DNA of 64,000 nucleotides from Psammoneis japonica (Eukaryota), in the NCBI GenBank assembly GCA_008632985.1, contig QPGO01000007.1, forward strand, positions 806,001 to 870,000, written 5' to 3'. This document shows, piece after piece, positions 27,969 through 63,425 of this stretch. Each line of letters opens with the position of its first letter. Position 1 is the stretch's first letter. The translations under genes were made by a program, and so were the position numbers. The notes beneath the pieces were generated by a model, which was not told the DNA's origin, did not search any database, and worked only from the letters and a program-made list of their open reading frames with translations.

Positions 27969-28289
27969 TGGGTGGGATTGTCATTGAGTATCAATTATAC
28001 CTATCAGAGCTTACGATAACGTTCGCATTAGTTCATCTAAGTTTTTAGAGGCATGTCTCGACCTAACAGAGAAAGTAGCGTTGCGCCAAGGGGACCCTAT
28101 CCACTGGGTTGCATGTGAGTCGACTGCCGGAGGCAAACACCACACACGTTTCGGGGTCGACGTGTACATCTGCCGTGCTGCGCTACCTGGACGATAGCTG
28201 CTTCCTCAAATGATTCATGTCAAGCTGCAGCTGGCTGGCCAGTGTCGAAGTGATGATCTTTACAAGCTGCTAGAATGCAAGGATGAACA

Positions 28290-28907
28290 GTTGTCTTGGG
28301 ATGGCCTTGGATGACTCCATTGGGTCCCAGAGGATGCAACAATGACAATGGTTGGGAAGCAAAGGTCTTGTCTTGTGTCAATGCAGCAGCTTGTCTCTCT
28401 GATGTTGCTGGCCTTGGCCCCCAGCCAGCCAACCAGCAGAGACAAGGGCGCCATCTGTGCGACAGTGCAAGTGCTCTGTTGTCTTGAGGTGGCGTTGGAT
28501 GACTCCATTGGGTCCCAGAGATGCAACAACAACAATGGTTGGGAAGCAAAGGCCTTGTCTTGTGTTGACACAACCCTTTGTCCCTCTGACATGACTGGGT
28601 TTGGCCCAGCCACCCCACCTGCAGTGACAAGACCCATCTGTGTGACAGTGCAAGTGCTCAGTTGTCTTGGGATGGCCTTGGACAACTCCATTGGGTCCCA
28701 GAGGACACAACAACGACAACAACAACGGCTGGGAAGCAAAAGCCTTGTCTTGTGTTGATGCAGCCCTTTGTCTCTCTGACATGACTGGGTTTGGCCCAGC
28801 CACCCCACCTGCTGAGACAAGAAAACCATCAGTGTGACAGTGCAAGTGCTCAGTTGCCTTGGGATGGCCTTGGATGACTCCATTGGGTTGAAGAGGTCAC
28901 AACAATG
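28290..28907. repeat. Degenerate ~185-bp tandem repeat (3+ units; 4th unit interrupted by the Gypsy element, resuming at ~34186)
   Basis: 'gttgtcttgggatggccttggatgactccattggg' recurs at ~28290, 28478, 28661 and 28853. 'caatggttgggaagcaaaggccttgtcttgtgt' reappears at ~34190. Confidence 0.8.
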
Positions 28908-29332
28908 TGCAGCATGCCTCGCTGCTGGACAACACGGCGAGACCGTGCACAAGCCTCTTGTGCATGGCAACGTGGTGTTGTCAACACGCACCTGGGAAGC
29001 ACGACCACAGGAGGGCGTGGCTCCAGGTCTTAGGCAATTCCAGAAGGATGCCAAGAGAGCATCCGTGTGAAGCACACCAGCCCGTCCTCTGGCCCACGAT
29101 GGCAGCGTGATTCCACACGATGACATCACTCGTGCATGGCGCGTGATGGCTTAATTCGCACGATCCACAATGCGAACGCATGATCGATTTAATGCGATCC
29201 AAATGCGAACGAATGGGGATTTGGCAAGATTCCCCATTCGCACGATCCCATTTTCTCTGCTCTGAACTGGCTCACAATTTTCACAACGACAAAGTCGCAA
29301 CACATCTTCTTTTTCAGTGCCCAGCACACACA
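28908..29332 (+). repeat. 5' LTR of Gypsy-1
   Basis: Aligns end to end with 33748-34177. Confidence 0.9.
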
Positions 29333-31120
29333 TGGGGCACAGCAATGTCACTCCCGCATGTTGTGCGAGGTGACAAAATCTGCAGAAACGAAACTACGAA
29401 ATGTTGGCAGGACCGACAAATCTTAAAACGACCATGAAGAAGCGGACTGAGCCGCCGATTCCGTTTGCACGGCCGGAGAAGAAAGAGCCGCAGCAGGGCG
29501 AGCACCAGACGTTCAAGCTGCGTAACAACCCCACTGATCCGGACAGTCCAACGCACGAGATGGGCATCCCGTGCCTTTCTGCGGCTACATGCGAGACACT
29601 CCTGATCTTTCTGCGCAACGTGGGTCGCGTGCGCGAAGGACAAAACATCACGACCGGGCCAGCGAAATTTGCCCTCATGCGTGACCTGCTGCAGGGCGAT
29701 GCTCTGACGTCATTCAACAATGCCGCTGACAAGCAGGCATCCCAAACCAACGCTGCGTGCGCAGCATGCGTCGCGAAGCTAAAGGAAAGCATCTCCCCAA
29801 ACGGGGCGGTGCTGTTGCAGAAGCGTTGTCTGCGGCGCTTCATGCGCAAGCCCGCAGAGGTTTCTGATTGACGGCTGTATCTCTCAGTTTCCACCCGTGA
29901 CGGAGGATGGAGAAACACCGGCACCATCACCCAACGACGAACTATGCGACATGTTCGAGTACGGTGTGCCGAACGCATGGCAGAAGTTCATGACGCTACA
30001 GAACTTTGACCCGTTGGCGCATGCTATCGCCGAATTTGTACAGTTCTGTGAGCGCATCGAGCAGGTCGAGCTTACCGAAGGTAACCAGGACCAACATACT
30101 AAGGTTCCACGTAAGCGGGGACGTAGAATGGACAATCCTGAGTCGTTGATCACGACCCAGCGGAACACCCAGAGTCGTGTATGCTACACGGGACTAACTG
30201 TGGACATGATACGGAAGATTGCCGTCAGCTCAAGCACCACGTGAAACGTGTCAAGACTGGACATTCCAATAACGGAGGCGGCAAGCCTAATACAAAACCT
30301 CGGAATGAGGAAGATATTAATACTCTCATCGGATCGAAGGTCGAGGAGTACTTTGCCAACGCTCAGAAAAAGCGTAAGGCCCGCGAGGAGGAGCTTAATC
30401 ACTTCCGCGACCTCAACTTAAGTGATTCCGAAGACTCGGACGCCTGAGAAGGGGGCCGACACGATACAGGTAGTTTTAATACATTGGATGAATGCATAAA
30501 TGAAAAACTGAATTACCATCGTACACGTGTTGTAGGCCAATCCCGTAAACGAGTTAAAAAGACTCATCTTACTCCAATCTTGTTTTTAGCTATGAATACT
30601 AAACATGGCAAGGGCAAGACTCAAACCATTAAGGCACTACTAGATAGTGGCGCCAGCAGTACTCTACTCGATAGTCGATACTGTAAACGTCTGCGAAGCC
30701 ATTCAACGGCTGAGACAAACTGGACTACGGTAGCAGGCTCGTTTAGTACGTCTAACGACTGTACCGTTAAATTTTGGTTACCAGAATTATCCGAAACTGG
30801 AGAACTTAAGCATACCGTCCACGTACACAACGGAAAGTTGGGCAAGTACGATATGATTATTGGACGTGACATTCTGGAGACACAAGGCATTGATATTGTC
30901 TTCTCTAAACAGATGATAGAGTGGCCATTAGTCAATGGAGAAGTACCAATGAGGCACGTAGATGCTACGGTGGAAACCTCCTTCTATCTTCAAGATCCAG
31001 AAGCCTTATCTTCGGAAACCGACCGGATTTCGCGTATTTTAGACGCTAAGTACGCGCCGGCCTGCCTCGAGGACATAACGCGAGGGCAATAAATTTTCTA
31101 TAGTTCAACAAAACGACCTT

Positions 31121-33706
31121 TTGGCACTATTGAAACGCCATGAGTCCTTATTTGATGGGACATTAGGAGAATGGAAGGGAGAACCCTACCATATCCAACT
31201 CAAGGAGGGTGTAGAACCATACCACGCTCGTCCGTATAAAGTACCTCGTGCGTACGAAGCTACGCTACGTAAAGAAGTAGAACGCCTAGTACGTATCGGT
31301 GTTCTCAAACGCGTTAACCGATCCCAATGGGCAGCTCCATCATTTATCATACCGAAGAAAGATTTAACGGTACGCTTTATTAATGATTTGAGAGAGCTGA
31401 ATAAACGGATCAAGCGATTGCCTTATCCGATTCCTCATATCCAAGATATGCTACTTAAGCTCGAAGGCTTTATGTGGGCTACATCGCTGAATTTAAACAT
31501 CGGCTATTATCACATCCGATTGGATACTGATAGCAAGAAGCTCTGCACGCTCATCTTCCCGTGGGGCAAGTATGAGATGCAAGTATTGCCCATGGGATTA
31601 TGTAATTCGCCAGACATTTTCCAAGAACGCATGTCAGGCTTATTTGAAGATCTATCGTTCGTTCGAACGTACTTAGATGACCTTCTCGTCGTGACGAAAG
31701 GCACCTATGAAGATCACCTCAACAAACTTGAAGAAGTCTCATTGAGGGTCCAGAAAGCAGGACTAAAAGTTAACGCAACTAAATCTCACTTCTGTCAAAC
31801 CCAATTAGAACACTTGGGTTATCTGGTCAACAGAGACGGAGTGCGGCCAACACCTGATAAAGTCGACGCCATCAAGGGAATCGCGACCCCAGCCAACAAA
31901 CGCGACCTGCGTTCATTTGTTGGCATGGCGAACTGCTGCCGCGACACGTGGATTGGACGTTCTGAAGTCTTGGCTCCGCTGACACGACTCGCAAGCGAGG
32001 CTGTTAAGTGGGAGTGGACGTCCGTTGAAGACGAGGCGTTCGAAACCGTTGAACGGGCAACATCGGATGATGTTTTGTTGTCACATCCTGATTTTAACAA
32101 ACCCTTTGAGATGCATGCCGATGCCTCTAAATGTCAATTGGGAGCAGTTGTGTCCCAAGATGACAAACCCGTCGCCTTTTACAGCAGAAAGCTCAACAGC
32201 GCGCAACTAAACTACACAACAACGGAGAGAGAATTGCTCGCCATTGTGGAGACGTTGAAAGAATTTCGAACGATTCTCCTTGGTCATCGTGTGATCACAT
32301 GTGCTGATCATAAAAATCTTGCGTGCAAAGCATTCAATGCCAAGCGTGTCATGCACTGGCGGTTGACATGCGAAGAATGCGGCCCCGAATTACGCTGTGT
32401 TAAGGGCACCCACAACCCAGTCGCTGATGCTCTCAGTCGCCTTCGACCAGCACCCAGCTTGCCTTCCGAAGCCAATCCGGATGTAAAAGACACTCCATCG
32501 AGTCGTCCTTTGCATGAAGCCTTCAATGCAGACGCTCAAGATGAGCTGTCTCTGCCTGTCAGCTTCAAGCGCATTCAAAAAGCACAGCAAAAGGACAAGC
32601 GCCTGCTCTCAAGAGCCAAGGACTCGTCCGACTGCTCCATTCACGCGTGTCGTGGGGGAGGGTCATCACGACAGTTAATCTGTCATAAGGACAAAATCGC
32701 AGCACCACAGTCATTGCAGGTTCCGCTGACTGAATGGCACCACGAGACATTGTGTCATCCAGGTGAGACACGTGCAGAAACATCTGTTGCCCAGCACTTC
32801 TGTTGGCCCAGTGTGAGGTCTACGGTGCATTCTGCGTGCGTCAAGTGCAGCCGATGCCAGAAGACAAAACGCCGAACGCAGCATTGTGGGAAGCTGCCAG
32901 AAAAGGTCGCAGAGATGATTCCATGGGAAACTCCATGCACAGATGTGACAGGGCCACATAAAATTCAAAGACGCGGAAAGGACACCTTGCAATTGTGGGC
33001 AGTCACAATGATTGACCCAGCAACCGGGTGGTTCGAGATTAAAGAAGTGTCTGCGAAACGCGCAGACGTCGCAGCAAACGTTGTGGAACAAACGTGGCCA
33101 TGCAGACATCCGTGGCCAACCCAGGCAGTTTATGACCGTGGGACAGAATTTGTGGCAGAATTTAGCCAGATGATTAAAAATGACTGTGGGATTTTGAAGA
33201 AACCCACAAGCAAACGGAATCCACAGGCGAGTGCCACAGTGGAACGTGTGCACCAGACACTTGGTGACATGGTGCATTCCTTTTCAGCACAGGACATGGA
33301 ACTGGACGAAGATGACCCATGGAGTGGCATCCTCTCCGCAGTGGCCTTCGCCATTGGAGCTGCGGCACACACGACCACGCGTGCAAGCCCCGTGCAATTG
33401 GTCTTCGGATGCGATGCGGTTTCATCCATTGCCCATCGTGCTGAGTGGAAGCACATAGAAACCAGAAAGCAGAAGCTTGTCCACTTAAACAACAAGCGTG
33501 AAAATCAGAAACGCAAGGAGCATCAATGTGCCGCAGGGCAATTGGTGCTTGTCAAACAGGAACAATCCTCTAAATGCGGTTCTGACAGCTGTGCAGGACC
33601 CGCCAGAGTTGTCCGTGCATGTTGTGACAACGGCACGTTGCATGTCCAGAACAGAGCGCTGATAGATGCGTGCAATCTACGGCAGATTGCACCCTGTCAC
33701 CAGTGA
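31121..33706 (+). CDS. Gypsy pol (RT-RNase H-integrase); open frame, but the 3' two-thirds carries many missense changes
   Basis: 861-aa ORF. Conserved Tyr replaced by Cys/His after ~31800 (e.g. NCCRD, LSHPDF, EECGPELRC, RHPWP). Confidence 0.85.
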   Translation: MALLKRHESLFDGTLGEWKGEPYHIQLKEGVEPYHARPYKVPRAYEATLRKEVERLVRIGVLKRVNRSQWAAPSFIIPKKDLTVRFINDLRELNKRIKRLPYPIPHIQDMLLKLEGFMWATSLNLNIGYYHIRLDTDSKKLCTLIFPWGKYEMQVLPMGLCNSPDIFQERMSGLFEDLSFVRTYLDDLLVVTKGTYEDHLNKLEEVSLRVQKAGLKVNATKSHFCQTQLEHLGYLVNRDGVRPTPDKVDAIKGIATPANKRDLRSFVGMANCCRDTWIGRSEVLAPLTRLASEAVKWEWTSVEDEAFETVERATSDDVLLSHPDFNKPFEMHADASKCQLGAVVSQDDKPVAFYSRKLNSAQLNYTTTERELLAIVETLKEFRTILLGHRVITCADHKNLACKAFNAKRVMHWRLTCEECGPELRCVKGTHNPVADALSRLRPAPSLPSEANPDVKDTPSSRPLHEAFNADAQDELSLPVSFKRIQKAQQKDKRLLSRAKDSSDCSIHACRGGGSSRQLICHKDKIAAPQSLQVPLTEWHHETLCHPGETRAETSVAQHFCWPSVRSTVHSACVKCSRCQKTKRRTQHCGKLPEKVAEMIPWETPCTDVTGPHKIQRRGKDTLQLWAVTMIDPATGWFEIKEVSAKRADVAANVVEQTWPCRHPWPTQAVYDRGTEFVAEFSQMIKNDCGILKKPTSKRNPQASATVERVHQTLGDMVHSFSAQDMELDEDDPWSGILSAVAFAIGAAAHTTTRASPVQLVFGCDAVSSIAHRAEWKHIETRKQKLVHLNNKRENQKRKEHQCAAGQLVLVKQEQSSKCGSDSCAGPARVVRACCDNGTLHVQNRALIDACNLRQIAPCHQ

Positions 33707-33747
33707 GACATCCTGTCACTTGACGGGGCCCTGATCATGGGGGAGTG

Positions 33748-34177
33748 TGCAGTGTGCCTCGCTGCTGGACAACACGGCGAGACCGTGCACAAGCCTCTTG
33801 CACATGGCAATGCAGTGTTGTTGACACGCACCTGGGAAGCACGACCACAGGAGGGCGTGGCTCTGGGTCTTAGGCAATTCCAGAAGGATGCCAAGAGAGC
33901 ATCCGTGTGAAGCACACTAGCCCGTCGTCTGGCCCACGATGGCAGTGGCATGAGATTCCACACGATGACATCACTCGTGCATGGCGCATGATGGCTTGAT
34001 TCGCACGATCCACAATGCGAACGCACGATCGATTTAACACGATCCAAATGCGAACGAACAGGGATTTGGCAAGATTCCCCATTCGCACGATCCCATTTTC
34101 TCTGCTCTAAACTAGCTCACAATTTTCACAACAACAAAGTCGCAACACATCTTCTTTTTCAGCACCCAGTGCATGCA
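33748..34177 (+). repeat. 3' LTR of Gypsy-1
   Basis: Follows the PPT and aligns with the 5' LTR. Confidence 0.9.
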
Positions 34178-37890: not shown

Positions 37891-37892
37891 CC

Positions 37893-40800
37893 TGCAGCAT
37901 GCGACTGTTATATACATATTCATGATTATATATTATTTATATGTCAATCGTACCACAGTCGTGGATGCGTACAAAGGACAGAACGATCACACAGAGTTGA
38001 TCGGATGTCGAGAATTGCAAATACGATCGATTGACGATGTTGACATCTTACGTGTCAACAGCAATCGTATCCGGACAATCTGTTGTCACGAATATATTCT
38101 CCGAAAGGCCTTTTGTCTGTAGAAGCAGTACAGAAGCTTTAGGCCATTGAGAACTCGTTCGGAGAAACCAAAAATCACAGAGCAAAATTCAATCTCATAA
38201 TTTCCACTTTTCGTACACTGTTCTACTTTCGTTTACACTCGTTCTTCGAGCATAGTGCATTGTGCACACACACCACAGAAGGTAAAAAGCACGGAAAATG
38301 AAAATTTTAACTAATGTGCCTTTGCAAATTCTTCTATGAACAGGAACGAATCGCGTCAGTTCTGCTGGAATCGATTTCCGAGCGGAAGAAGCTCAAGCCG
38401 AGCAGCACCTCAAGATGGAACGCTGTTTTTCGTCTACCAGACAAGAGGATTCGCTCTAATGCGGTCTGTTCCAAGCACCCAAGGATCAAGGGCTCTCAAG
38501 TGCACCGCATTGTCAAAAAATCTACACCAAGTCATGGTTGCAGAGAACGCAAGTTCCGAGTCGATCAGGTCCGAGAAACACGTCTGGCATGCAAGGAGAG
38601 ACTATTGGAGAGTTTTTGGAGACCGAATCAACGAGCCTCGAGTCCAAGAGCAAGATGGAACCGTTGGAAAGTACCTCAAGAGTCTCACGTCTCATGTCTT
38701 TCCAAGAACTGCACTTCAGAATCAGAGTTGTTATTTTCAAGACGATCTGAAGAAACCAGAGCTGCTTGACAGCAAGAAAGCCTCTGTTAGACCCAAGAGG
38801 TCAATGATGAGAGTCCATGCGACCCTCAGATGGATTCTAAGTCGAATCTAGCGGGAAACCGAGCGCTGATTTGTCAGCTGTCACTCGCACCGCAAGGATG
38901 GCAGCATCAGTCTACTGTCCAAAACAATCAACTGTTGCAACTCATCCTTGATGAGCTGATTAAGTTTTGAGTCATCTAAAGGTCGTTCATGACGTCCGTG
39001 ACGAAAAAACATGTCAACTCAGGCTCTGATGGCGCAGTTGGTTCCAAAATAAAAAAGGCCCCAAATTTGGTTCCAAAAATGGTCTCCTGCATGGTGCCAG
39101 AACAATCCAAAGTGAATGCAAGGTCTTGTCTTTGAAAAAAGAACACCTGCATCACGGATTGAAGCCACTCTAAAAATGAACTAGCAAAAGAGTGCAAGGG
39201 TGACTCTGAAAGAGACCCAAAAATGCGCCGTTCAAATGGCAATCGCACGCGGTCGCGTCGCGACAACGAAAATGCCGCTCGCAAAAAAAGAGATGAACGT
39301 CATGATTGATCAGGCGGTTCAAAAAATGCTCAAAGCGAGTTCCTTGAACAAAGAAAAAGAGCAAAAGGGCAAAGAATCAGATTCTGACACCCTCAGTGAA
39401 GAAAAGAGCCAATTTGATCGGATGATCCAGACTGAATCCGAAGAATGATTTTGGTCTGTTCACGAATTGTGTGCTTTGCTGGATGTTGGGAAGCCTAGAA
39501 AAAAGGCAGAAATAATTCACACTGGTCCAGGAGTCATCATTTATGTGAACACTTCCTTGGGAAAGGAGAAAAAAAAAAACATCTACGTGTTCCCATCGAC
39601 AACGGAACATCGTCAACCACAATTTTGCGCAAATTCGTGCGAAAGTTGAGAACACAAGAATCCGCCACCAAAAACTTGGGAAACCAAGGGTGAGCTCTTT
39701 ACGACTGACAGCAAACACCGAGTTCAGTTCTCACCATGCGAAATTTAAGGCATGCTGACATGCAAACAGTGTGTGTTGAAAACACCAAATTTTCTTCAGG
39801 TTCAAATGATGTGATCATGGGACGCGACTTAATGTCCAGTCCTGCAAGTCACATTGGACTGCGCAAATGAAGAAATCTAATGGGAAGAAGCAATTGCCTT
39901 ATGAAGAATGTTCCACACNNNNNNNNNNNNNNNNNNNNNNNNNNNNNNNNNNNNNNNNNNNNNNNNNNNNNNNNNNNNNNNNNNNNNNNNNNNNNNNNNN
40001 NNNNNNNNNNNNNNNNNNNNNNNNNNNNNNNNNNNNNNNNNNNNNNNNNNNNNNNNNNNNNNNNNNNNNNNNNNNNNNNNNNNNNNNNNNNNNNNNNNNN
40101 NNNNNNNNNNNNNNNNNNNNNNNNNNNNNNNNNNNNNNNNNNNNNNNNNNNNNNNNNNNNNNNNNNNNNNNNNNNNNNNNNNNNNNNNNNNNNNNNNNNN
40201 NNNNNNNNNNNNNNNNNNNNNNNNNNNNNNNNNNNNNNNNNNNNNNNNNNNNNNNNNNNNNNNNNNNNNNNNNNNNNNNNNNNNNNNNNNNNNNNNNNNN
40301 NNNNNNNNNNNNNNNNNNNNNNNNNNNNNNNNNNNNNNNNNNNNNNNNNNNNNNNNNNNNNNNNNNNNNNNNNNNNNNNNNNNNNNNNNNNNNNNNNNNN
40401 NNNNNNNNNNNNNNNNNNNNNNNNNNNNNNNNNTGCAATCTATTTGATTCAAACATGGAATGCCACCATGTCAAATAAAAAAAGCACACGTCGTGCTCAC
40501 ACGAAAATCATGCCGTGGGGAGAAAATGAGCACCACGGACTTCCAATGAGAATCTGTGGAGCCCCAGACATTTTTGTGCAACACTTGAGTGAACTCATGA
40601 CAGGTTTGAAGTTGTCAGAACGACTGTGTGTGATCGTTTGTGCCTGACAAAAGTAACTTCAAAATGTCACCTGTGCAAGTGACAGCTTAATGCGGCATTC
40701 AAACGACTGGAACAGTCGCTCAGAAGGTTGACAACAAAAGTCCTTCACTGTTTAACTTGAAATGAACTGTCAAGACTTCCACACGTAACGACATGCAATC

Positions 40801-42606
40801 GATTGCAAAGAAAATGGAGGCGATTCAAGCAATCGCAACACGAGAAAAACGTGAAGAACACTGCGACATCTCGTTGTCATGCGTCACCATTGTCGAGACA
40901 TGCAGTCTCAACGATCTCCTGTGCAACACTGGCCAAATTCACCTCAGTGAAGGTCAAACGGCAAAAGTGCAAGCACGGAACGAAAAGTCTCTGAAAACAT
41001 GGAGCGCATCAAATCAAAAACTACATTGTTGTCACACACGCATTTCAACATTGTGCGTTGCAACGGAAAAAGAACTTCTGTCCACAGTGAAAACACTTAT
41101 AAAATTCCGAAATTGCTGTTTGGCCAACAGATTTGTGCATGTGCGGATCACAAGACACAACGGACAAAGTCATACGTTGACAACTTCAGTCCCGAATTAG
41201 AACACAACGAGGGCAAGGCGAACATCGTCGCGACAGACGCGATCAGCCGACTCACCATAGAAAATTGAATCCTACGACAATGTCCTGCCGTTAAAACGGG
41301 ATAAAGACATTCCCTCCAAATTGTCGGACGCGACACATCATACGAACACTTTTCGTGGAGGCGAGCGAGATCGAAAAATGCTCATGTCACAAGGATAAAA
41401 TCGCCTTTTTAAAGGACGATTTAGGAAAAAACAGTGACAGATTGGTATACATTATACGTATCCACTTCACACTGGCAAAAGACAATCTCACAACACCCGT
41501 ACGGTTGTATTGTACAATGTACGAGGCAAGACATTAAAATGTGCTTCATGTCGACACACGAGATGTGCCAAAGATCTAGAAAAAGAAAAGAAAAATGGAC
41601 ATTTATCCACTTAGTGCACGAAACCAGTGCCTTCGGAATGACAAAATAACACCGGTATGTCAGAAAGAAACGTCCAAATAACGATTAAAATCCAACTGAT
41701 AGATGGTTGAAGTACAAAAAAAAAAATCCATAATGGAATTCATAACCATCACAGGATTGATTATCAAGACGAAATGGTCATAATATCTTTGACCATCGTT
41801 TATTATTACTTATGAAACGTGGTAGTGCAGCAGAGCAATATGGCATATAAAGTAAGCCCGCCAAACTACATGAAATCCACAAGTAAGTAAGTGAACGCCA
41901 TAATTAAGAGCGTACATTAAGTACTGGGCACGATGCTATGTACAATCGATATCAGGAAAAACACTTACTCCAGGACAATTAGTCCTTGTGTTCATATCAA
42001 CAAGAACGTCAATGAGAATACTCGACGTAATACTATATATATACATATTAAGTGAGAAACAAACAATGTCACTCTCAAAAGACATTCGGAAATTGGAACG
42101 GCCCTATATTGCCTATACAAAACAACAACAGTCATTGCTAATGGCACAATACAGTGAAAGTGGAGACATTATTGACACTGTCGATGTCCGTCGAATAATC
42201 CACTTACAAATGACTCTAATGTGCAATTAGGGAGGCGAATGCAGTATGCGACTGTTATATACATATTTATGATTATATATTATTTATATGTCAATCGTAC
42301 CACAGTCGTGGATGCGTACAAAGGACAGAACGATCACACAGAGTTGATCGGATGTCGAGAATTGCAAATACGATCGATTGACGATGTTGACATCTTACGT
42401 GTCAATAGCAATCGTATCCGGACAATCTGTTGTCACGAATATATTCTCCGAAAGGCCTTTTGTCTGTAGAAGCAGTACAGAAGCTTTAGGCCATTGAGAA
42501 CTCGTTCGGAGAAACCAAAAATCACAGAGCAAAATCCAACCTCATAATTTTCACTTTTCGAACTTCGTTCTACTTTCGTTTACACTCGTTCTTCGAGCAT
42601 AGTGCA
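37893..42606 (+). mobile_element. Ty3/Gypsy LTR retrotransposon (Gypsy-2) spanning an assembly gap; internal region heavily frameshifted
   Basis: 367-bp LTRs at 37893-38259 and 42240-42606 with TGCAG(T/C)ATGC..GCATAGTGCA termini. PPT AGGGAGGCGAA. Fragments 'DVIMGRDL', 'IMPWG..LPMRICGAPDIF', 'TEKELLSTV', 'GKANIV..DAISRL'. Flanks CCACC/CCACA. Confidence 0.85.
39919..40433. other. Assembly gap (run of N)
   Basis: 515 consecutive N. Confidence 0.99.
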
Positions 42607-42980: not shown

Positions 42981-43399
42981 TTGAGATTAACTTGGCAGCA
43001 ATGACTCGCATTCACACTTGTTGACAATCGATTGCAGCAGAGACACACAATGAATGGACAAGACAATGGAAAACATTGTTTGAACGTGCAAGTCAACCAA
43101 TTGACTGTGACAGCAAAGATTGAAAATGAGCCCCAATGCTGAATTTGGCAATCACCCAGTCAGCAATGATGAGCCAAGTGAATTCCCACAAAGGAACTCA
43201 TTTGGATCTGCAAACTGATTGAGTTTCACCTCACTCATTGAAATCAATGACTGTTTGTTGATGTCCCTGGACATTTGTTGGCATGCATGGACATTCATTC
43301 ATTTTTGGTCACTCCCATTTGTGATGAACAGGTGTGATTTGTGTTGAGTGGCAATGGTTCATCACAAATGAATTTGTGTGCCGACACTCACACTCACAC

Positions 43400-45650
43400 A
43401 CGCTGTCTGCAACATTGTCCGTTGGTCCGACCACAAGACAATTCATGGAAATGGGCCTCTGATGATGTGTGCACCTGCACAGCAGGAGGGATTTGCAGGC
43501 AGAAGCAGGAAAGCTGTCATCAGCTCCTTCTTGATTGAAAAAATCCAAGCAGGATGGTCAAGGGCGCATGTGTGTTTCTGCAGGTCACAGAGACCTCCTT
43601 TCTCTGACTGGAAAGCTGCAGAGGGCATTCCCCCCTGCAGCTTGACAATCCACAAGTCAAGGACAAATGTGCACCACTGCCTCTCCACATGGCTTGCAAG
43701 GATGGTTGGAATTGCCAGCCAAAAGTGGAGTCACTTCAGAGCTGTCCCTGCACATTTGAGATTGCACAGGATGCTCTGCAAAGGTGTGCAAACCAAACCA
43801 TGAATTTCCAGTTCACTGCTGGGCCTTTCAAAAATGTGCCAATCAAAATTCTCTTCTTGTTGCCATGCACCCACACACTCAAAAAGTGCCCAACTCAGTT
43901 GAGGTTTGCAGCATGGGTTGCTGGCACACTGAAGCTGCCTCTGGAGCATGCAAAACACAACAAAAAAGTCTTTGAATGTCTGGCATGGTGCATTTGTCAG
44001 AGGGATCTGGCTTTTCTGTTGCACCCAATGTTTGAGGACAGAGGCACTCAAGGCAGCAAGCAGCGAGTGCACTTGCTGTGGCTTTTCAAGCATTTTCCAG
44101 CCCAAGTGGACAAAACTTGGGGGTCCAACTGGACATTTCCATTGCATGTTGCATGGCTTTTGTGGATGACATGCACTCAAAAGATCAGCTGGCAACCTTT
44201 GTTGGACAAGCACCCCCCCTCACTTTGAGGACAAAGCAGACAGAAAATGAGTGGCTGAAGCTGCTGAGAAGAATGAGATGTTGTGCACTTGCCAGCATCA
44301 GGCAAAGATGACACATCCCTGTGCACAGCTCTGCTGCACAAGATTTGAGACATGAGAACAAGCAGAAGAAAAAGGAAGTGGCCAATCCACGTGCAGAGCA
44401 CCAAAGCTGCTGCAACAGCAAAAAGAGCTCAGTGTGTTGCAGCGAAGAGAAAAATGAGGCACTCTCACTCTAAAGACATGTTCAAAGATGACAACTTTGC
44501 ATGGGACAAGAATGATGAGAACAAATTGATCCCACACTTCTTGGATTGATGGCAAGAGAAGTTCTGCACCCGCATTGGTGCTGCCCCTGGGATTGTCCAG
44601 TGGTGCACTGCACCACAGGCAGCAAGGAAACAGCCCACAGCCAACAAGAAGTGGTGTTGGTGCAACAGCTCTGCACTCTGGTGCACTCAAAACCACTGCT
44701 GCTGGCCCACACATGTGGCTTGTGCAGCACTGCTGGTGGCACAACTCTTTCATGTGGAGCTCAAGATCAATCGCCAAGGGATTCCAGCAATTGCGTGAGC
44801 ACAAAGGCTTGCAAAGCTGACCACCAATCCCCCATGGTCAGCCCAACATGTGCTCATTGGAGAGCTGTTTGAGGGCACGCCACTTGGACAAGGAGTTGAC
44901 ATTCTTGCCATTCCAGACAAGGCAGTGTGTGCCAACTGTCTGGAGGGAAAGCATCAAGGCCACAGCAAGATGCAGCAAGGAAGAAGCTGTGCAGCAGGGG
45001 CCTTCTTCTGAGATTGCTGTGATGTCTCATGTCAATTCAAAAATTGCAGCACATCACAAAGATGCCTGTGCACTGTGCACTGTGCTGATTTGTCTCAACA
45101 TGCCAGCAATGAGAGACAAAAAGTGCAGGAAGCACCAAGTTTTTGGGAAATGTCTTGTTTCCATTTTTTGGCTCAGAGCATGCAAGATGGTGTTCTTGTG
45201 CAGCTTCCAGCAGGAGGAAGTCAAAGATTGCAACAAAGCATCAAGCATGCAATGATGCTGGTGTGAGCAAAGGGGGTGAGAAAACCATGCCACAGTTTCA
45301 AATCATTTTGTGCAGTGCCGACGTCATTTCGTGCATTGTTGAATGCCTTCATTGAATGACTTGTGAGTGATGTTTCCATTTTGGAAGGGCCAAAGAATCT
45401 CATTTGTTGCTGAGCTTCCAAGCTGCAATCACAGCAAATGTCCAGTGTTTTGGAATCCATCCAAGAACATGCAAATTGGCTGCAGATGGGCTCATTTGGT
45501 GTGGGGTCTCCCTTTTGACATGGAGAGGCTGCACTCAGCTCAGACTGGCATTCTTGGAAGCAGTTGCCATTGCACCCTTCCTCACACCATGCTCTTGTGG
45601 CCATCACATCCTGCAACAAAGCTGATGGTCTTGTTTTTTTTTTTTGTGCA
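43400..45650 (+). pseudogene. Highly decayed relic, possibly of an ankyrin-like 'LPLH' repeat gene
   Basis: Scattered 'KDKCAPLPLHMAC', 'LKLPLEHA', 'FPLHVA' and 'QLPLHP' motifs. TpA and CpG almost absent. Confidence 0.35.
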
Positions 45651-46294
45651 TGACAAGGGCAGAAGATCTGGGTGAGAAATGCCTTCAGTTGGCAAAGGGG
45701 TTGTCAGAGACCCCCCAAGCACAATCAAGAACATTGGTGCTGGTGGAGCTGGGGTGCTGACATCCCCGGGTGACAGATCTTCCAGGTGACTGCAGCTGCA
45801 GAATTGCCACGGAGGAGGCATTGCACTCTCTGGCCAATTTCCCCCCCCAAACAATCTCTTTGGGTGGTGGAGTCCTGGCTGACAACGAATCAAGTCGGGT
45901 CCCGAGAACGGCCACCACTTGGTGTCCCGGTTCTCTGGGGTTCCTCAGACGGGAACCGGCGAATGGTGCACCGGCGAATGGGAAAAGCGTTAGAATTTCA
46001 AACGAAATCCGTTGAACTGCACAGTGCTGTCATTTTCATGTCACCAAACGGAAGCAATAAGTGGTCATGTGTCGATCATGCTAGCCCGGGTCCAGCACCA
46101 ATATCTGCCTCCTCGGGCGTGAGGATGCGTTCACCCTTGGACCAGAATGTGGTGACAAAATAGAGAATGTAACGTTTAATCACTACTCTCTCTGTACAAT
46201 CGCAAAAGGCGAAGACAACAACTACTACTGTATGCTATTCTCGTTACACTTAAGAAGAGAGCCCAATCGTCCTCTCACAAAGGACCAATCGTCT

Positions 46295-56629: not shown

Positions 56630-57628
56630 GATGTTTGAGTAACAAAGCACTATATCTTTCAAAAGCTAGTCGATCATTTGCCAAGTCTAGACAAAAACTT
56701 GAAATGTTATGTCTCAGATCTCCGGATGGACGGAGCGGGAAGTTTTCCGTATAGTTACAGTACCTTTATTCTTACGAATAAATAGCTCCACTCGACTCTG
56801 ACACTCGTTGTCAAAACTCAATGAATCTCGTACATTGAAACAAACTTTCAGGGTACAGCGTGCAGATCCAAGGCTTTTCCATCGCGAGTAGGATGACAAC
56901 TGTATAGTAGGATAATGACGTACGGGCGGTTGCCACCGCTTTGCTCATGCGTGCTTCGTATCGGGGATGGACGAGCGCGCTCCTGGAGTGAAACGGTGGG
57001 TTCAAACCACTGGTCGCGCGCTCTCTTCTAAAGTGATGTAAATCTCATGGAATGCATTGTGTGCTTGGAGTGGAGATGGCTTTACTAGCGCTGTGAAAGG
57101 TTTTCTCCCTACCCAAAGCTGGACGGTGGGGCCAGAGGGCGGGAGAGGTGGGAGCGATTAAACTGTGCTGACGACCGTGGCTTGTCTTTGTCGATCTTGA
57201 AAGAATGAGACAGACCGGTGACCGAAGAAAAACAACAACCAACCCTTACAGCACGTTCAACGTGCGTACGTGGTTCAACAGGTAATGGGTCTTCTCCCCG
57301 ATTCTGGCACTGGATGAGGACAGCGGTTGCCACCGCTTTGCTCATGCGTGCTTCGCATCGGGGATGGACGAGCGCGCTCCTGGAGTGAAACGGTGGGTTC
57401 AAACCACTGGTCGCGCGCTCTCTTCTAAAGTGATGTAAATCTCATGGAATGCATTGTGTGCTTGGAGTGGAGATGGCTTTGCCAGCGCTGTGAAAGGTTT
57501 TCTCCCTGCCCAAAGCTGGACGGCAGGGCTTCCAGCGCCACCCACTGATGTGCAGGCGGTGCAGCAGCTGGCCAAACATGTCTTGGGATTGGGCGGGTGG
57601 GCCCGTCTGGAGGGCTGGTGGAGCACTG

Positions 57629-58708
57629 TCATGGGGCGATGGGCACTTCAGCATTCGGGTGAAGCACAAAATTGCCCCCAGCGAGCATGGCTTGCGCAAA
57701 TCCGCGCATGGTGGGCTCGGCTTGGAGGTGCAGATGGCGCAGCATCTCGTCAGAGCGCCAACGGCCTAAGAGACGGATTGGGTCGGTGTCGACATGGGCA
57801 CACAGCAGTGCCGTTGTTCCTGCTGCACGAAGGCAGCGGGATGAGACATCGGCCGGTGTGAAGCCCAGGTTCTCGGGACCCAGGGCAACAATGGCGGTGC
57901 GGAGTGCCGACGTCATGTCGGCAGGGGAGACGGCGTGCCACCTGTCGTTTTCAAAATGCACCCCCAGGGGGGTGTCGGGTTGCGCTCCGCAGGTGCGCAA
58001 GTGGACAACTCGGCGGACGAGGGCCCTGGTTGGGCAAAGGTCTGGGTGGCCTGACAGGCCGTGCGCAATGACTTCACCGCGCACTCCATTTTTCTGGGCA
58101 GCAAAAGTGAGGGAGCTGAGGGTGGTGGCGAAGAGGGCAGGGGCTGCAGTGGTGAAGAGGTTCAGATGCACTCCGCCCGAGGCCAAACGAAGGTCTGCCA
58201 GGCAAAACGGAGTGGTGTCAGATGGTGTGGCTGTGCACTCACCCGGGCAAAGCAAAAAGAAAAAGGCGATTGCGATCATGTCCGCAATGGCCCGGGTGCC
58301 GGCGCTGTTGCCAAGGGCGGCGGCGTGCAAGATCCAGAGGAGGATGCTGATGGGGACTGGTTTGACACGATCGGGCGGCGGATCCTGTTTCTTGTAAAAA
58401 TGGATTTGGCAGGTGAGACGGAAATCCAAGCCGCCCTGGGGTGTGAGATGTGGGTCCGCGGACCCCATTGCAGCGAACATCTGCCCAACCGACCGCAAGG
58501 CATCCTCAGCGGTGCGTGCCCGGACGGGATTGCCTCTTGGTGCGATGATGCCGGTGCGGAATCGATGGAGGAACACTTGGAGGAAGAGGATGGGATTGCA
58601 GGTGTCTTCGAGAAATGGACTGATGGCCAGTTGGCGGCAAAAGTCGATCCAAAGGTGCCAGTGGGTGTCGGCGGCGGAGGCTCGGGAAGTGGCAATGCCA
58701 CGCTGCAC
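57629..58708 (-). CDS. Tyrosine recombinase of the DIRS/Ngaro element, catalytically mutated
   Basis: 'IAFFFLLCPGEC' (expected LLRPGEY), 'CLRAAGTTAL', 'LGRWRSDEMLRHLH' (expected catalytic Tyr is His). Confidence 0.85.
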   Translation of the reverse strand: MQRGIATSRASAADTHWHLWIDFCRQLAISPFLEDTCNPILFLQVFLHRFRTGIIAPRGNPVRARTAEDALRSVGQMFAAMGSADPHLTPQGGLDFRLTCQIHFYKKQDPPPDRVKPVPISILLWILHAAALGNSAGTRAIADMIAIAFFFLLCPGECTATPSDTTPFCLADLRLASGGVHLNLFTTAAPALFATTLSSLTFAAQKNGVRGEVIAHGLSGHPDLCPTRALVRRVVHLRTCGAQPDTPLGVHFENDRWHAVSPADMTSALRTAIVALGPENLGFTPADVSSRCLRAAGTTALLCAHVDTDPIRLLGRWRSDEMLRHLHLQAEPTMRGFAQAMLAGGNFVLHPNAEVPIAP

Positions 58709-59784
58709 TGCTTCCTGCGCAGCGCCGAGATCACGTAAGAACGCATTTCAGGTGGCGGGGTCCACAGACGCCAAGACTTGCTCTGTGGGCAAGTGGAGTT
58801 CAAATGTGAAAGGAACGCGACGTCAGACAAGTGTTGCAAGCGCGAAGCGTCGTCACCCGCTCGGTTCCAAGTGCCCGGGTGGCAATCGTGGAGGCCCATG
58901 TAACGGTGTTGGCGTTGATGGTGCGCTTGAAGCCGGAGGAGCTTTGAAGCCGGTTTGACTGTGGCAGCCAATCCCTTGCATTGCCAGCACATGGTGCCAA
59001 GGTTGTCGGCACGGTTGAGGTTGGTGCGCTCGCGGATGTCGCACGTGTCGGCAGCTGCGCAGGTGTGGACGATGCTGCCGACCAGTTCGAGGTCGGTGTT
59101 GGTGATGGGTCCGTGTGGATTCTCGTGCGTGGCAAGCAAGTCGGAGATGTCCTTGGGAAATCGCAGGCGCCACGCAATGGGGCCTGCGTCACGTTGGATG
59201 CGACGTCGGCCAGAGGAATGGCGCAGCTTGGCGGCTCGTGGGACTGCGGTGGGTGTTGGTGCGATCACCCCGCCGGCCCCGTGGCCGGCAGCGTCGTGAC
59301 AGCCATGAACAGTTGGAGGCAGTGGTGCGAGCTCTTGGATGCGGACGGGACATGAGTCCAGAGTCTGGCGCAGATCACGGAAATCGTCCAGTGTGGAATG
59401 TACGTTGGCCACAAGTCGGATGCGTGAGTCCGGTGCAGTGTGGCGGAGGGCTTCCTGCAATTCGGAGAACAGGCCTCGAGAGCCGGGTGTGGCTGCCGCG
59501 AGTGAACGCAGTTCTCCCAGGAGTTTCTGACAATCCTGAACGGCAACGCGTTTGCGTGAGCGGGGGAAATCCTTGTGGAGTGTGTCGTGTGGTCGTGCAC
59601 GCCGGCGAGGAGCAAGTCGAAGTGTCATTGACAAGGTGTCAATTAACCAGCCTAACACTTCTTTCTGTGTAGACCATGTGGCGTCACCCTTGCGGAGCTT
59701 TTTGACTGATGCGGGTTCTTTGCGGGCGGCAACGTCGTTGGAGTCCGTGGGGCGGAAAACATCGTCGATGGCGTGCAGCAACAC
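58276..59784 (-). CDS. RT C-terminus/RNase H frame of the DIRS/Ngaro element, overlapping the YR frame
   Basis: 'KEVLGWLIDT', 'CHDAAGHGAGG', 'ITNTDLELVG', 'ADN', 'NRAGDDASRL'. Confidence 0.75.
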   Translation of the reverse strand: MLLHAIDDVFRPTDSNDVAARKEPASVKKLRKGDATWSTQKEVLGWLIDTLSMTLRLAPRRRARPHDTLHKDFPRSRKRVAVQDCQKLLGELRSLAAATPGSRGLFSELQEALRHTAPDSRIRLVANVHSTLDDFRDLRQTLDSCPVRIQELAPLPPTVHGCHDAAGHGAGGVIAPTPTAVPRAAKLRHSSGRRRIQRDAGPIAWRLRFPKDISDLLATHENPHGPITNTDLELVGSIVHTCAAADTCDIRERTNLNRADNLGTMCWQCKGLAATVKPASKLLRLQAHHQRQHRYMGLHDCHPGTWNRAGDDASRLQHLSDVAFLSHLNSTCPQSKSWRLWTPPPEMRSYVISALRRKQCSVALPLPEPPPPTPTGTFGSTFAANWPSVHFSKTPAIPSSSSKCSSIDSAPASSHQEAIPSGHAPLRMPCGRLGRCSLQWGPRTHISHPRAAWISVSPAKSIFTRNRIRRPIVSNQSPSASSSGSCTPPPLATAPAPGPLRT

Positions 59785-59879
59785 GCGATGTGTGTTTCTC
59801 CGGGCTGCGGCGGACCCCTGCGCGGCGCCGATGAAGTCATCGACGTATGTGTCAATGCAAGCGAGGCGCCGGCGGCGGC

Positions 59880-62800
59880 TTGGGTGTTGAGGTGTGGGTC
59901 CGGCGACGTTGGAATCGGCGCGGCAATTGTTGCCGGTGGTGGAGTTGGCTGGGGTGCATGGGTTGGCACCCGACTGGATGCCAATTGCTCCAATGGGTGT
60001 GGTGGTGCCGTTGCGGCACGCACTGGCTGTAAGTCAGCCAGGTCTGCTGCCGTCTTGGCAGCGGCGCTGAAACACGGTGGCGAACAGGCCCATCCCACAG
60101 GGAGCCGTGTGGGTGTGGCCACCAATGGGGGTTCTCCCGGCAGGTGTGGGAAAACCACCCCGAGTCGTTGGGCGTCATCGGGGTTAAGGTGCATCCGATA
60201 GAAGCCGTCAGCGAGGTCGACTTTCACAAGGTAAACCCGGCCGTGCGATGGATTTGCCAGCAAGATGCGGCGCAGCAAACGGTCCAAGGTGCGTCCGAAC
60301 TGCATGGCCTCCATTGGGGTGTTGGGCTGAGTCGCGTCGTTGGTGCCGTAGAAAGTGCAGTCAACGATCGGTCGTGGTCGCCGACCGCACTGGGGCACCA
60401 CGCCGATGGGGCTCAGATGCAATCCTGGGGTGTCCTTTATTTCCTCATGTGGGAGGACCACCCAGAAACCCTTGTCAATGTAGTCGGCCATGTCCTCCCG
60501 CAGGAACTCGACATGCTCGTAAGCGGACTTGTGTGGCCCCCTGGCCAAACTTGCTTCAAGCTCTTGAGGTGTCCAAGGTGCGTCTGCGAGGGTTGTGGGG
60601 ACACCGCGGCATTTGCAGCTTTGCAGCAGCCTGTGGGCTGGGTGCTTTCGTGTGCGGCGCAATGGACCCCAGTCCCCTCTGCCGCTGCGGCGACGCAACA
60701 AGCAGCCCAGTCCTCCAAGGCGCAGCAATTTTGTGTCACGTAACATTTGCTTGCCCAGTTTGTCAGTCTGTACAGCGTTTGCAATGGCCTGCGTGCGCGA
60801 AGCACTACGGTCATTGCTGTCTGAGAATCTCTCCACCTGCGGGGGTGGCGGCACTGCCAATGATGCTGATGGCAGCTGAAAAGGCTCTCGGCCCAGAGCC
60901 CCCGAACTCGGGCCGTTGCCGAAGACCTGTTCAGTCTTCCAATGCTCCGTTGCCCACGTGAGGAGGTTCGCCTGGTCGCTCTCCGCGTGGTTGTCACGAT
61001 GGTCTGTGACACAACCACAGTTGGAGTTGCGCTGCCCTTTCAAGTGATGCAGGAGGCACCGTGGGTTTCCTTGCGTGTCGACCGGCAGGGCGACCCCATT
61101 CTGAGTGCACCGCCGCTTTACCTCCCGTGACCCAACGTTGGGACGATCACGGACGGCATTGAACCGTTCGTCGCATTGGGGGTTGCGTGCTGGCGTGTTG
61201 TCGCCCGGCGCGCCTGGGCGAGGGTTTTGTGAGGCACCACCCACGGGCTGGGTCAACGTGGGAGTCGTGGCAGCTGGGGGGGGCGTGCTGCCGGACACCA
61301 GTGCAATTGCAGGGGGCAGCGTGTAACGCCACGAGTCGTTCCCCTTCGAAGCATCGCCCACTGCTCGGCGCGCATGGAAAGGGACGGCGGCGTTGCAGGC
61401 TGTCTCCTGCAGCCAGAACCACGACATGAGCTCCACCTGCACATGCCGCTGCATGTTCGCCACCAGCGTTGGGTTCCGGGAGCACTCCACAGCTGAGTCC
61501 TCAGCGCACGTGTCCAGGTCCTCCCGGGAATCCGTGAAATGCTGGACCACAGGGTGTCCCGCTCCCAGCAATGTTGCGAGTGCGACGCGGGTGCCTTCCA
61601 AACAATGTTGGAGAGATTCGATGGTGGTGGTTGCGCGAGCGTCGTCCGGAGTTTCCAGCACCATGGTGTCGGTGAGGCTGGGCCGGCTGTCACCTCCGTG
61701 GATTTGGCGGCACATGGCAGCGCGGTGTGTGATCTGCTGCGCTTGCTCCGGGGTCGTGAGACCAAATTGACACGGGTTGACTCCTTGGGCGGGGTCATCC
61801 CTGTTGTCTCCTGCAAAGTTGAGGCTCATCAATTTCGACACCAAACTCACAGTGACAGGGATGCGGAAACGCACTCCCAAAGCGCGGCGCGTCTCATCGA
61901 CTGCGTTCTGGACTTCGGTGATGCGTCCCGCCTTGGAAGCCCGCGCGAGGCGTGGCCACACAGGCGGCAGCTGATCTTCAGTGCATGCTTGGCAGAGCCT
62001 CATGAGCTTGTACACACCTGGATCTCCGAATGCTTGCACCGGCATCTTTCCTTGCTCGGCGGCTCGTTGGCGTGCCTGTGCGTCCATGCAAGATTGATGC
62101 TGCTCGGTCGTGAGTCCATCGATCGCCCTCACCACTGGTGCGATGTGATGGGGCGGAAGTGCAAGCTCGTTCCGCCCTGGCAGGTCAAGATTGACCTTCT
62201 GGTCGAAGTGCCGCATGAGCACTGCATTCGGGGGCTGGGGCATGGTGAGCCACTCTCGCGCAATGGCCGACATGTGGGGGTCCGCCGCCGTGGCGGTGCA
62301 TGCAACCTTGAGACAGTCCAACAAGGGACGTGTCGCGTCGACCTCATTCCTGGCCGCAGCCGCTCCAAAAATCTGTGTGAAGGCTTGCTTCGGGGACAGC
62401 CCCCCTGGGAGAAGTACGTTCATGCAGGCGAACGGGACGTGCATCGCAAGTCGAGTGCGTGCTTCCACCGTGTTTGCTGCGTTCGGGTCCGCGGGGTCTG
62501 CCAACCCTTCAGGGTGCGCCGTGATCTCTGTTGCCATCCCCGCATCATCTGGGACAAATGTGCCAGCGGCGGCAAGACCCATCTCCTCTGGCGGATGCGG
62601 GACCACTGTGAACTGGTTGGCGACCAGGTCCCCGGCCAGGGCGCAGGCATTTCCGTCCCACGGCTGTGCAGGCCCAATGACGGCAGTCGGGCAGGTTGAA
62701 ACGCGGTGGTGCACCTGAATCGACCCTTCATCGGGTGCGCCCTGCGCACAGCAGAGGCGCACTGACGCCATCGGCACGTTGTGCTCGGACGCCGCCGACA

Positions 62801-63243
62801 CCCTCTGTGCCAGGGCCTGAGGGTTGTAACGAGAGGCCCCCTGCACACGGGCGGCAAAGTCAATCATGGGCTCCGTGTAGACTCCTTGGTGGGGGTCCTT
62901 GGTGTTCGTCGCGAAGAAATCGTGGCAAGTTCGGAGGTTCCCCTGTTGGGGAACCTGAGCTGCACCGGCCTGCTGTGCCGGTTGGGCAGCTGCCTGTGGC
63001 TGCACGCCCGGCCCTCCTTGCGGCGCTTGGCCAGCAGGCACACCCGGTGGTGGCTGGGCTGGTTGCCCTGCTTGTGGCACGGGATGCACCGGCAGTGGCG
63101 GTGCGCCCGGTGGTGGTTGCGGTGGCTGCCCAGGCGGTTGCCCGTCACCGTGATTCACGGCGTTTGGCGGTTGGTCACTCACACTGCGTGCCGTGTCGAA
63201 TTCTTTCTGCGATGGAACAAAGACGGCGGAGGTGTCCTGCATC
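59880..63243 (-). CDS. Gag-like ORF fused in frame to the RT N-terminus of the DIRS/Ngaro element
   Basis: ATG at 63243 (MQDTSAVF). Pro/Gln-rich N-terminus. Cys/His knuckle 'RCLLHHLKGQRNSNCGCVTDH'. Followed by RT motifs. Confidence 0.7.
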
Positions 63244-63425
63244 GCGGTCTTGTGGCGATTAAACCATGCTGACGACCGTGGCTTGTCTTTGTCGATCTTG
63301 AAAGAATGAGACAGACCGGTGACCGAAGAAAAACAACAACCAACCCTTGCAGCACGTTCAACGTGCGCACGTGGTTCAATGGGCAATGGGTCTTCTCCCT
63401 GATTCTGGCACTGGATGAGGACAGC

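Follow-up and report, generated by a model that had tools for sequence, protein, structure and literature searches.

Targeted hypermutation of mobile DNA is known in fungi, where repeat-induced point mutation (RIP) converts C to T, and in animals, where it involves APOBEC and ADAR. The closest counterpart to the pattern described below comes from mutation-accumulation lines of Bigelowiella natans, in which the mutation rate of two integrated viral regions is ~1000 times that of the remaining genome (bioRxiv 10.64898/2026.01.13.699255). According to that preprint, 230 of the 231 mutations in these regions are A to G or T to C changes, all 230 of them on TpA, and the genome carries clustered 1-kb windows that are poor in TpA and rich in CpA plus TpG. 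TpA-poor coding sequences in B. natans are enriched in reverse transcriptase (RT) and DDE domains, and the authors propose an ADAT2-like DNA adenine deaminase (bioRxiv 10.64898/2026.01.13.699255).

Here we analyse a 64,000-nucleotide stretch of DNA from the diatom Psammoneis japonica (contig QPGO01000007.1, positions 806,001 to 870,000; hereafter ‘the window’), and in particular a retrotransposon of the Ngaro-like type near its end. Ngaro-like elements carry split direct repeats arranged A1-[ORFs]-B1A2B2 around their open reading frames (ORFs), as described for Cafeteria burkhardae (PMC8547959) and Xenopus (PMC9210276). The described elements and the one in the window have in common the split-repeat layout, a length of ~6.5 kb, three ORFs and a GC content higher than that of the host. 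We propose, with a probability of roughly 0.78, that the window holds a dead Ngaro-like element whose repeats were alike at insertion and were then eroded unequally by a DNA-level process converting TpA to CpA or TpG, and that this process also affected a gypsy element and kilobase-sized blocks while host genes were spared. The same features link the locus to B. natans, namely TpA to CpA or TpG changes on both strands, foreign or mobile integrated DNA as the affected sequence, an arrangement in blocks, and TpA depletion accompanied by CpA and TpG enrichment. The repeats, which were located by a repeat search of the window and then compared base by base, are the following.

56926-63425, minus strand: tyrosine-recombinase retrotransposon, Ngaro-like, DIRS order, layout A1-ORF1-ORF2-ORF3-B1-A2-B2
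56926..57132, minus strand: B2, outer (3'-terminal) copy of split direct repeat B; 6 TA kept
57133-57153: spacer of 21 nt between B2 and A2
57154..57324, minus strand: A2, outer copy of split direct repeat A; 4 TA kept
57323..57529, minus strand: B1, inner copy of repeat B, abutting A2; 2 TA remain, both in resistant contexts (CTAA, GTAA)
63255..63425, minus strand: A1, 5' copy of repeat A; 1 TA remains, in the context TTAA

Read along the minus strand, the split direct repeats thus follow the order A1 (63425-63255), ORFs, B1 (57529-57323), A2 (57324-57154) and B2 (57132-56926). The first-pass annotation had taken such pairs to be identical at insertion, which agrees with what is described for Ngaro-like elements (PMC9210276) and with two relatives from metagenome assemblies (L060 and L049) whose repeat pairs are 100% identical. 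It had also claimed that the pairs in the window differ at TpA-type sites plus one CpG-type site (cccCGa/cccTGa). Alignment of 56926-57132 with 57323-57529 and of 57154-57324 with 63255-63425 reproduced its differences exactly, and every string that it quoted was found. The B pair (B2 versus B1, 207 nt) has 6 differing bases at 5 sites and the A pair (A2 versus A1, 171 nt) has 8 differing bases at 6 sites, listed here with the outer copy first.

56959, B pair: T/C, TA/CA
57084, B pair: A/G, TA/TG
57086, B pair: T/C, TA/CA
57111, B pair: A/G, TA/TG
57127-8, B pair: TG/CA swap
57164-5, A pair: TG/CA swap
57248, A pair: A/G, TA/TG
57267, A pair: T/C, TA/CA
57279-80, A pair: CA/TG swap
57283, A pair: T/C, TA/CA
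57299, A pair: C/T, CG (A2)/TG (A1)

All 14 differing bases are transitions, with no indels, and all 11 sites are pyrimidine-purine steps: seven TA versus CA or TG, three CA/TG swaps and one CG/TG. Such steps cover just 182 of the 378 repeat bases, and no difference occurs elsewhere in the 378 nt. At each of the seven one-sided sites, TA is found on the outer copy (B2 or A2). As a control, the repeat pairs of related elements from other organisms (L003, L054 and L055) were compared, and their 97 substitutions were classed as transversions (50), other transitions (32), CG-type (11), TA-type (6) and swaps (0). Because these control pairs differ mostly by transversions and other transitions and show no swaps, whereas 10 of the 11 events in the window's pairs are TA-type or swaps, the TA-type pattern is real and specific to this genome, and chance is excluded.

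The swaps had been read by the first-pass annotation as one ancestral TA changed on opposite strands in each copy, and this reading fits the numbers. By arithmetic, ~16 ancestral TA are estimated for the A and B repeats (3 shared, 7 one-sided, 3 swaps and ~3 converted alike in both copies, and hence invisible), compared with 18 expected at an observed/expected ratio (o/e) of 1. From these ~16, the inner copies would have lost ~13 (~80%) and the outer copies ~6 (~40%), and independent loss at these levels predicts ~2.6 swaps, compared with 3 observed. The same arithmetic gives ~19 inferred conversions at ~32 TA site-copies, set against the absence of differences outside pyrimidine-purine steps, which is indirect evidence on the rate. 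A CG ancestor for the three swaps was also considered and is improbable: the two copies share 24 intact CG, compared with a single CG/TG pair. That single site (57299) is ordinary CpG decay.

Copies nearest the gene island were further claimed to keep TA and interior copies to lose it, forming a gradient. The outer repeats contain 10 TA (o/e ~0.55) and the inner repeats contain 3 (o/e ~0.17). However, the profile is a step rather than a gradient: at the A2/B1 junction, the TA at 57247, 57267 and 57283 survive, whereas the site at 57356, within 73 nt, has been converted. Raw TA density declines steadily over 56.6-57.8 kb. The three TA common to both copies lie in CTAA, GTAA and TTAA, the contexts that survive best across the window. 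Converted sites in the inner copies alternate between the two products (CA, TG, CA, TG, CA in B1 at 57356-57525; CA, TG, CA, TG, CA and possibly TG in A1 at 63265-63400). We take this alternation as coincidence; the gypsy long terminal repeats (LTRs) described below do not alternate.

The direction of change was read from deep conservation. The DIRS-like ORFs were aligned to 80 related metagenome loci, and a column was treated as conserved when it was covered by 15 or more relatives and 85% or more of them agreed. The window departs from the conserved state in 45 of the 366 such columns, and the polarised changes are as follows.

TA to TG: 6
TA to CA: 3
CG to CA: 5
CG to TG: 5
TG to CG: 1
other transitions: 3
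transversions: 12
multi-step: 10
CA to TA or TG to TA: 0

The same procedure was applied, against 120 relatives, to the pol ORF of a Ty3/gypsy element that lies 25 kb away in the window and is composed as follows.

28906..29324, plus strand: Ty3/gypsy 5' LTR
31079..33706, plus strand: gypsy pol ORF (RT, RNase H, integrase), continuous, 875 aa; TA loss from ~31.8 kb, inside the ORF
33746..34169, plus strand: Ty3/gypsy 3' LTR

At these conserved coding columns, 9 TA losses and no gains were found in the DIRS-like element, and 28 losses and no gains were found in gypsy pol, where 58 of 405 conserved columns differ. The gypsy losses comprise 23 beyond position 32000 (at 237 conserved columns) and 5 at 31811-31955. 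TpA is the site of 37 of the 42 polarised A:T to G:C transitions (9 of 11 in the DIRS-like element and 28 of 31 in gypsy), and conserved tyrosines are lost at 4 of 7 positions in the former, including the catalytic tyrosine of the recombinase (now His), and at 8 of 10 in the latter beyond 32000. Compared with a median TpA o/e of 0.64 (range 0.38-0.88) in the 80 relatives, the value for the window copy is 0.16, and its CA and TG o/e are 1.43 each, compared with 1.15. Its CpG o/e is still 0.88 with TA ~75% gone. The direction given in the first-pass annotation, TA to CA or TG, is supported by the losses without gains in both elements and by the low TpA ratio. An excess of TA to TG over TA to CA changes in coding sequence (27 versus 10) is expected from which changes alter the protein, and no strand bias was concluded from it.

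We also considered the opposite direction, in which CA or TG was the family state at the differing sites and TA arose in the outer copies through RIP-like C to T changes at CpA on either strand. The pairwise repeat differences are symmetric in this respect, since either direction needs 14 events and 3 coincidences, and RIP prefers CpA, as noted in PMC2621366. However, the conserved columns hold 37 TA losses and no CA to TA or TG to TA change, TpA is depleted rather than enriched in the element and in transposon-rich blocks, the relatives carry four times more TA, and the host is a diatom. On this comparative evidence, loss of TA to CA or TG is supported and the RIP-like direction is refuted; we consider the latter extremely improbable. 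What the process shares with fungal RIP is the use of both-strand transitions at one preferred dinucleotide to inactivate mobile DNA, and skewed blocks beside normal genes. Its polarity is opposite, since RIP makes TpA from CpA and lowers GC, whereas here TpA is destroyed and GC rises.

LTR pairs are made identical at each retrotransposition, and such pairs in the window show the same classes of difference as the split repeats. Between the two gypsy LTRs we count 8-9 CA/TG swaps, with TA-type differences at 4 sites and CG-type differences at 5, along with 2 transversions and one 5-nt indel. A second, LTR-like pair has the following arrangement.

37893..38259: LTR-like repeat copy 1, adjoining a depleted block; CA at 3 sites
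42240..42606: LTR-like repeat copy 2, in a TA-normal stretch; TA at the same 3 sites

Because LTR pairs, identical at insertion, show these difference classes, the TA-eroding process acts after integration, on DNA. Several side observations concern these elements. In the right half of the gypsy LTRs, one copy shows TG only and the other CA only, and a tandem repeat of ~190 nt (units 81-83% identical) lies at 28268-28905, directly upstream of the 5' LTR. The second LTR-flanked element (37893-42606, ~4.7 kb) contains a scaffold gap of 515 N (39919-40433), and the differences of its pair near 38189-38219 form a messy cluster that is not TA-type.

These data also bear on the proposal that the differences were inherited from before integration, through ADAR-like RNA editing with a 5' U preference, through errors of reverse transcription, or as old divergence between A1 and A2 and between B1 and B2 that was never homogenised. 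In the DIRS model, the two copies of a repeat are each transcribed and copied on their own, which would allow such inheritance. ADAR favours U before the edited A, according to the B. natans preprint (bioRxiv 10.64898/2026.01.13.699255). RNA editing before integration is nevertheless ruled out because LTR pairs, which are remade identical in each cycle, differ likewise, the sense strand shows both A to G and T to C changes, and the enrichment of CA equals that of TG (1.43 for each). In addition, repeat pairs are identical in intact relatives, and the changes destroy catalytic residues of the element's own recombinase. We judge changes before integration, in any of these forms, to be very unlikely. 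A strand-specific read artefact of a modified base was likewise rejected, since CA and TG products follow one another at distances of tens of bases.

Dinucleotide o/e values profiled in 1-kb steps show that the erosion has a mosaic distribution in the window. Stretches with host genes (RPS3, an RRM protein, aldolase and pyruvate kinase) have a TpA o/e of 0.5-0.7 and a CpG o/e of ~1, and TpA values of 0.5-1.0 occur around these genes; within this window, all four of them lie in TA-normal stretches, and erosion is confined to integrated foreign or mobile DNA. The DIRS-like element and the 3' half of gypsy have lost TA and retained CpG. Saturated blocks at 1-6, 9-15, 21-26, 34-38 and 43-46 kb have a TA o/e of 0.00-0.12, a CG o/e of 0.09-0.36, and CA and TG o/e of 1.6-2.3; they are complex sequence rather than simple repeats and alternate sharply with normal stretches. 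An example is the following.

43001..46000: saturated block with 2 TA in 3 kb; CG o/e 0.11-0.27; CA and TG o/e 1.6-2.0; non-repetitive

ApT and GpC are normal throughout the window. Erosion boundaries also fall inside elements, at ~31.8 kb in the gypsy pol ORF and at 57283-57356 at the A2/B1 junction. These observations establish a TpA-specific, strand-symmetric, post-integration A:T to G:C process that is confined to blocks and destroys the coding capacity of transposons. Three local features of the profile may be added. The stretch at 22-24 kb is asymmetric (TG 2.2-2.3 versus CA 1.6-1.7), 36001-38000 has a strand skew (GC skew -0.39, AT skew -0.19) and 36001-37000 has no TA at all. Pfam recognises one further ORF, the fifth (LRR, 63588-63998); the flank that contains it is TA-depleted and is multi-copy in a public run described below.

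TpA changes are accompanied by another class, since CpG-loss transitions number 10 in the DIRS-like element, 4 in gypsy pol and 5 in the gypsy LTR pair, and we read these as a second process. Diatom transposons can be methylated, and CpG decay by deamination of 5-methylcytosine accounts for the one CG/TG site, for 10 of the element's polarised changes and for the low CpG of the old blocks. However, it cannot yield TA to CA or TG, and it does not match an element that keeps most of its CpG with its TA largely gone. TA loss therefore seems fast, and CpG loss seems to be a slower, separate decay.

The process also depends on flanking bases. The survival of TA in each tetranucleotide context, obtained by comparing depleted with normal 500-nt windows, is as follows.

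ATAT: 0.008
ATAC: 0.015
ATAG: 0.031
GTAC: 0.056
ATAA: 0.057
CTAC: 0.088
GTAA: 0.129
CTAG: 0.146
CTAA: 0.235
TTAA: 0.35

As a separate observation, two related elements from other sources may carry the same signature: L010 (1-1852; TpA 0.38, CpG 0.48, CA/TG 1.47) and L004, in whose terminal repeat pair (1-346 versus 5948-6296) 5 of 10 substitutions are TA-type.

A scheme that would account for these patterns is that the repeats were alike at insertion and were then eroded to differing degrees by a process acting on DNA. It would convert TpA to CpA or TpG, by T to C or A to G changes on either strand, with the outcome apparently random at each site. About three quarters or more of the TA would be gone from the inner copies (B1 and A1) and from the interior as a whole, compared with about a third in the outer copies B2 and A2, which adjoin the host genes. 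A site converted in one copy would appear as TA versus CA or TG, and a site converted in both copies on opposite strands would appear as CA versus TG. The same process would have hit the neighbouring gypsy element and saturated kilobase blocks and spared host genes.

By analogy with B. natans, an enzyme would drive this hypermutation and target it to mobile DNA, and the process would be of the same kind. Our first choice of chemistry, held tentatively and at somewhat less than even odds, is deamination of adenine in DNA at T-A. The substrate of tRNA adenosine deaminases is A34, the base after the universal U33, and an enzyme of such origin would have a natural T-A preference. The main alternative, which we consider rather doubtful, is that thymine at TpA is instead oxidised by a TET/JBP-type enzyme to 5-hydroxymethyluracil or 5-formyluracil, which would mispair with G and give T to C changes on either strand. 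The sequence cannot separate T to C on one strand from A to G on the other, and 5-formyluracil causes A:T to G:C changes. In one dinoflagellate, 5-hydroxymethyluracil was reported to favour TA and TC contexts (cited in PMC11071213), whereas the same paper found no context preference in Breviolum. At such levels, moreover, this base is known from dinoflagellates and not from diatoms. A dinoflagellate-type host with 5-hydroxymethyluracil at TpA was rejected, since the spliced-leader motif is absent, introns are GT-AG (canonical in the pyruvate kinase gene) and the class II aldolase of the window is diatom (84-90% identical to diatom proteins only); the modified base is kept only as a possible chemistry.

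Several observations weigh against the proposal that one insertion was eroded unequally. The switch from TA kept to TA lost occurs within 73 nt and ~400 nt from the unique flank, in a window that contains N gaps, including the 515-N scaffold gap, and the one public run that contains the element (run X1) has just 57% of the 31-letter words sampled from it. Polarity was read at conserved coding columns and not at the 11 repeat sites by means of other family copies. At the DIRS-like conserved columns, CpG and TA are lost equally often (10 versus 9), and B. natans is without such CpG loss. The part of gypsy at 30.0-31.8 kb is untouched (TpA o/e 0.9-1.0), although both LTRs and the 3' half are eroded, and a rule in which the whole repeat is the target fails to explain this stretch. 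In the DIRS model, most of A1, A2, B1 and B2 are copied separately from RNA, and some repeat differences could therefore predate this insertion. Finally, two separate copies, brought together by the assembler or by recombination, may be the source of the outer and of the inner repeats.

This last point amounts to a distinct explanation, in which B2-A2 and B1...A1 stem from different insertions, because two family copies were assembled as one or because a younger copy recombined with the element or converted part of it. A lightly eroded copy would then be compared with a heavily eroded one, with the mutational process unchanged. A mosaic assembly is possible because of the sharp step inside the element, the N gaps and the partial representation of the sampled words. 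The family is also present in run X1 in many copies of 85-100% identity (805 contigs aligned), and there are places where all contigs differ from the window, such as 60899 (all 9 contigs). However, gypsy has an equally sharp boundary inside its continuous 875-aa ORF with eroded LTRs on both sides, such that two switches would be needed, and the outer copies also carry conversions, as seen in the three swaps. We therefore regard a mosaic as unlikely, if clearly more serious than the two alternatives of RIP-like change and change before integration. It would leave the signature and its direction unchanged, but the pairs would then provide no clock within the element.

Among the family copies in run X1, the 835 variable places comprise 663 transitions and 172 transversions. 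The window has C or G and the reads have T or A at 399 places, and the reverse holds at 264, which fits both directions of change. None of the eleven repeat sites is among the 40 variable places listed. Contig ends at 57084 and near 57522 hint at family variation there and give no polarity. The flanks of the element (56700-56925 and 63426-63650) are multi-copy in the run (summed depth 149 and 434), with TA abundant in the left flank and depleted in the right. Two contigs that join 56889 to 63454 and 56891 to 63449 resemble empty sites in repeated host sequence, but their sides span only 27 and 21 letters and nothing was concluded from them. A second copy of the element was not found within the 64-kb window.

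The coding regions of the element, all on the minus strand, are as follows.

60930..63240, minus strand: ORF1, gag-like by position; no Pfam match; fused in frame to ORF2
59652..60930, minus strand: ORF2, earlier part (RT); weak RVT_1 match
58276..60033, minus strand: ORF2, later part (RNase H-like part); RT motif YVDD seen by eye; frame differs from the earlier part
57629..58747 (stop to stop), minus strand: ORF3, tyrosine recombinase by predicted fold

ORF3 is predicted to encode a tyrosine recombinase instead of a DDE integrase. A structure model made from its alignment (pLDDT 76) gave Cre as the best Foldseek match (E-value 9e-6, TM score 0.5-0.6), with further matches to IntI, XerD/H, Flp and lambda Int. 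Hundreds of relatives of ORF3 occur in public metagenomes at identities of at most 69%. A methyltransferase-like domain separates PAT and DIRS1 elements, which have it, from Ngaro elements, which are without it. At default and curated thresholds, Pfam gave no match for the element's ORFs; the RVT_1 E-value is 0.016 in the window's ORF2 and 1.6e-4 in an intact relative (L025, with three ORFs of 698, 865 and 388 residues), both short of the curated cut-off.

Unlike the described Ngaro-like elements, the window copy is a dead family member whose ORFs fall below the curated Pfam thresholds. In ORF3, the catalytic Tyr338 is replaced by His and the box I Arg167 (LLRPGEYT) by Cys. The two parts of ORF2 are in frames that differ by 2, and at ~59884 the window has 2 nt that are missing from most of the other run X1 copies, which therefore points to a frameshift in the window copy. 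At the ORF1/ORF2 junction, relatives have a TAG or TGA stop where the window has CAG at 60929, and with this stop lost a frame of 1311 codons continues through A1 into the flank. The lost catalytic residues mark a dead copy and are not evidence against descent from the Ngaro-like/DIRS family. More generally, the process cannot create stop codons and erases TAA and TAG, and long false ORFs arise for this reason.

The comparison with B. natans also brings out differences. That organism is a chlorarachniophyte in which giant-virus and virophage DNA is affected, whereas the host here is a diatom (a stramenopile) and the targets are retrotransposons. Erosion in the window is near saturation (TpA o/e 0.00-0.16), compared with 0.45 in the B. 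natans viral region, and the process was measured in real time there, whereas here it is read from its footprint. Older blocks in the window are also CpG-poor, boundaries lie inside single elements, and an extended order of contexts is seen, with ATAT most sensitive and TTAA least. Our full-text literature search, whose scope left out most subscription journals, found no diatom report of a TpA-eroding signature and one report overall, that on B. natans.

We regard as evenly balanced the broader proposition that diatoms run a defence that mirrors RIP, in which an enzyme would edit A:T to G:C at TpA (ATAT far over TTAA) in retrotransposons and other mobile DNA, in sharp kilobase tracts and up to the exhaustion of TA. 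Since a rhizarian alga shows this signature as well, such a system would be old or widespread in the supergroup of stramenopiles, alveolates and rhizarians. It would remove TAA and TAG stops and most tyrosine codons, and repeat pairs would serve as a clock and as a direct read-out of its activity.

The first report of a TpA-specific form of hypermutation that increases GC dates from 2026 and concerns a single chlorarachniophyte, with integrated viruses as the only targets; a diatom would represent a second, independent lineage. The targets would extend to transposons, with two unrelated retrotransposon families affected, saturation reached and a polarity of 37 to 0. The context order, the sharp tract boundaries and the use of repeat pairs as internal clocks provide testable handles. 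For annotation, the dating of LTRs or split repeats by their divergence would be badly wrong in such genomes. The process would also explain unrecognisable repeat DNA in diatoms, in which tyrosine codons and TAA and TAG stops erode and long false ORFs arise.

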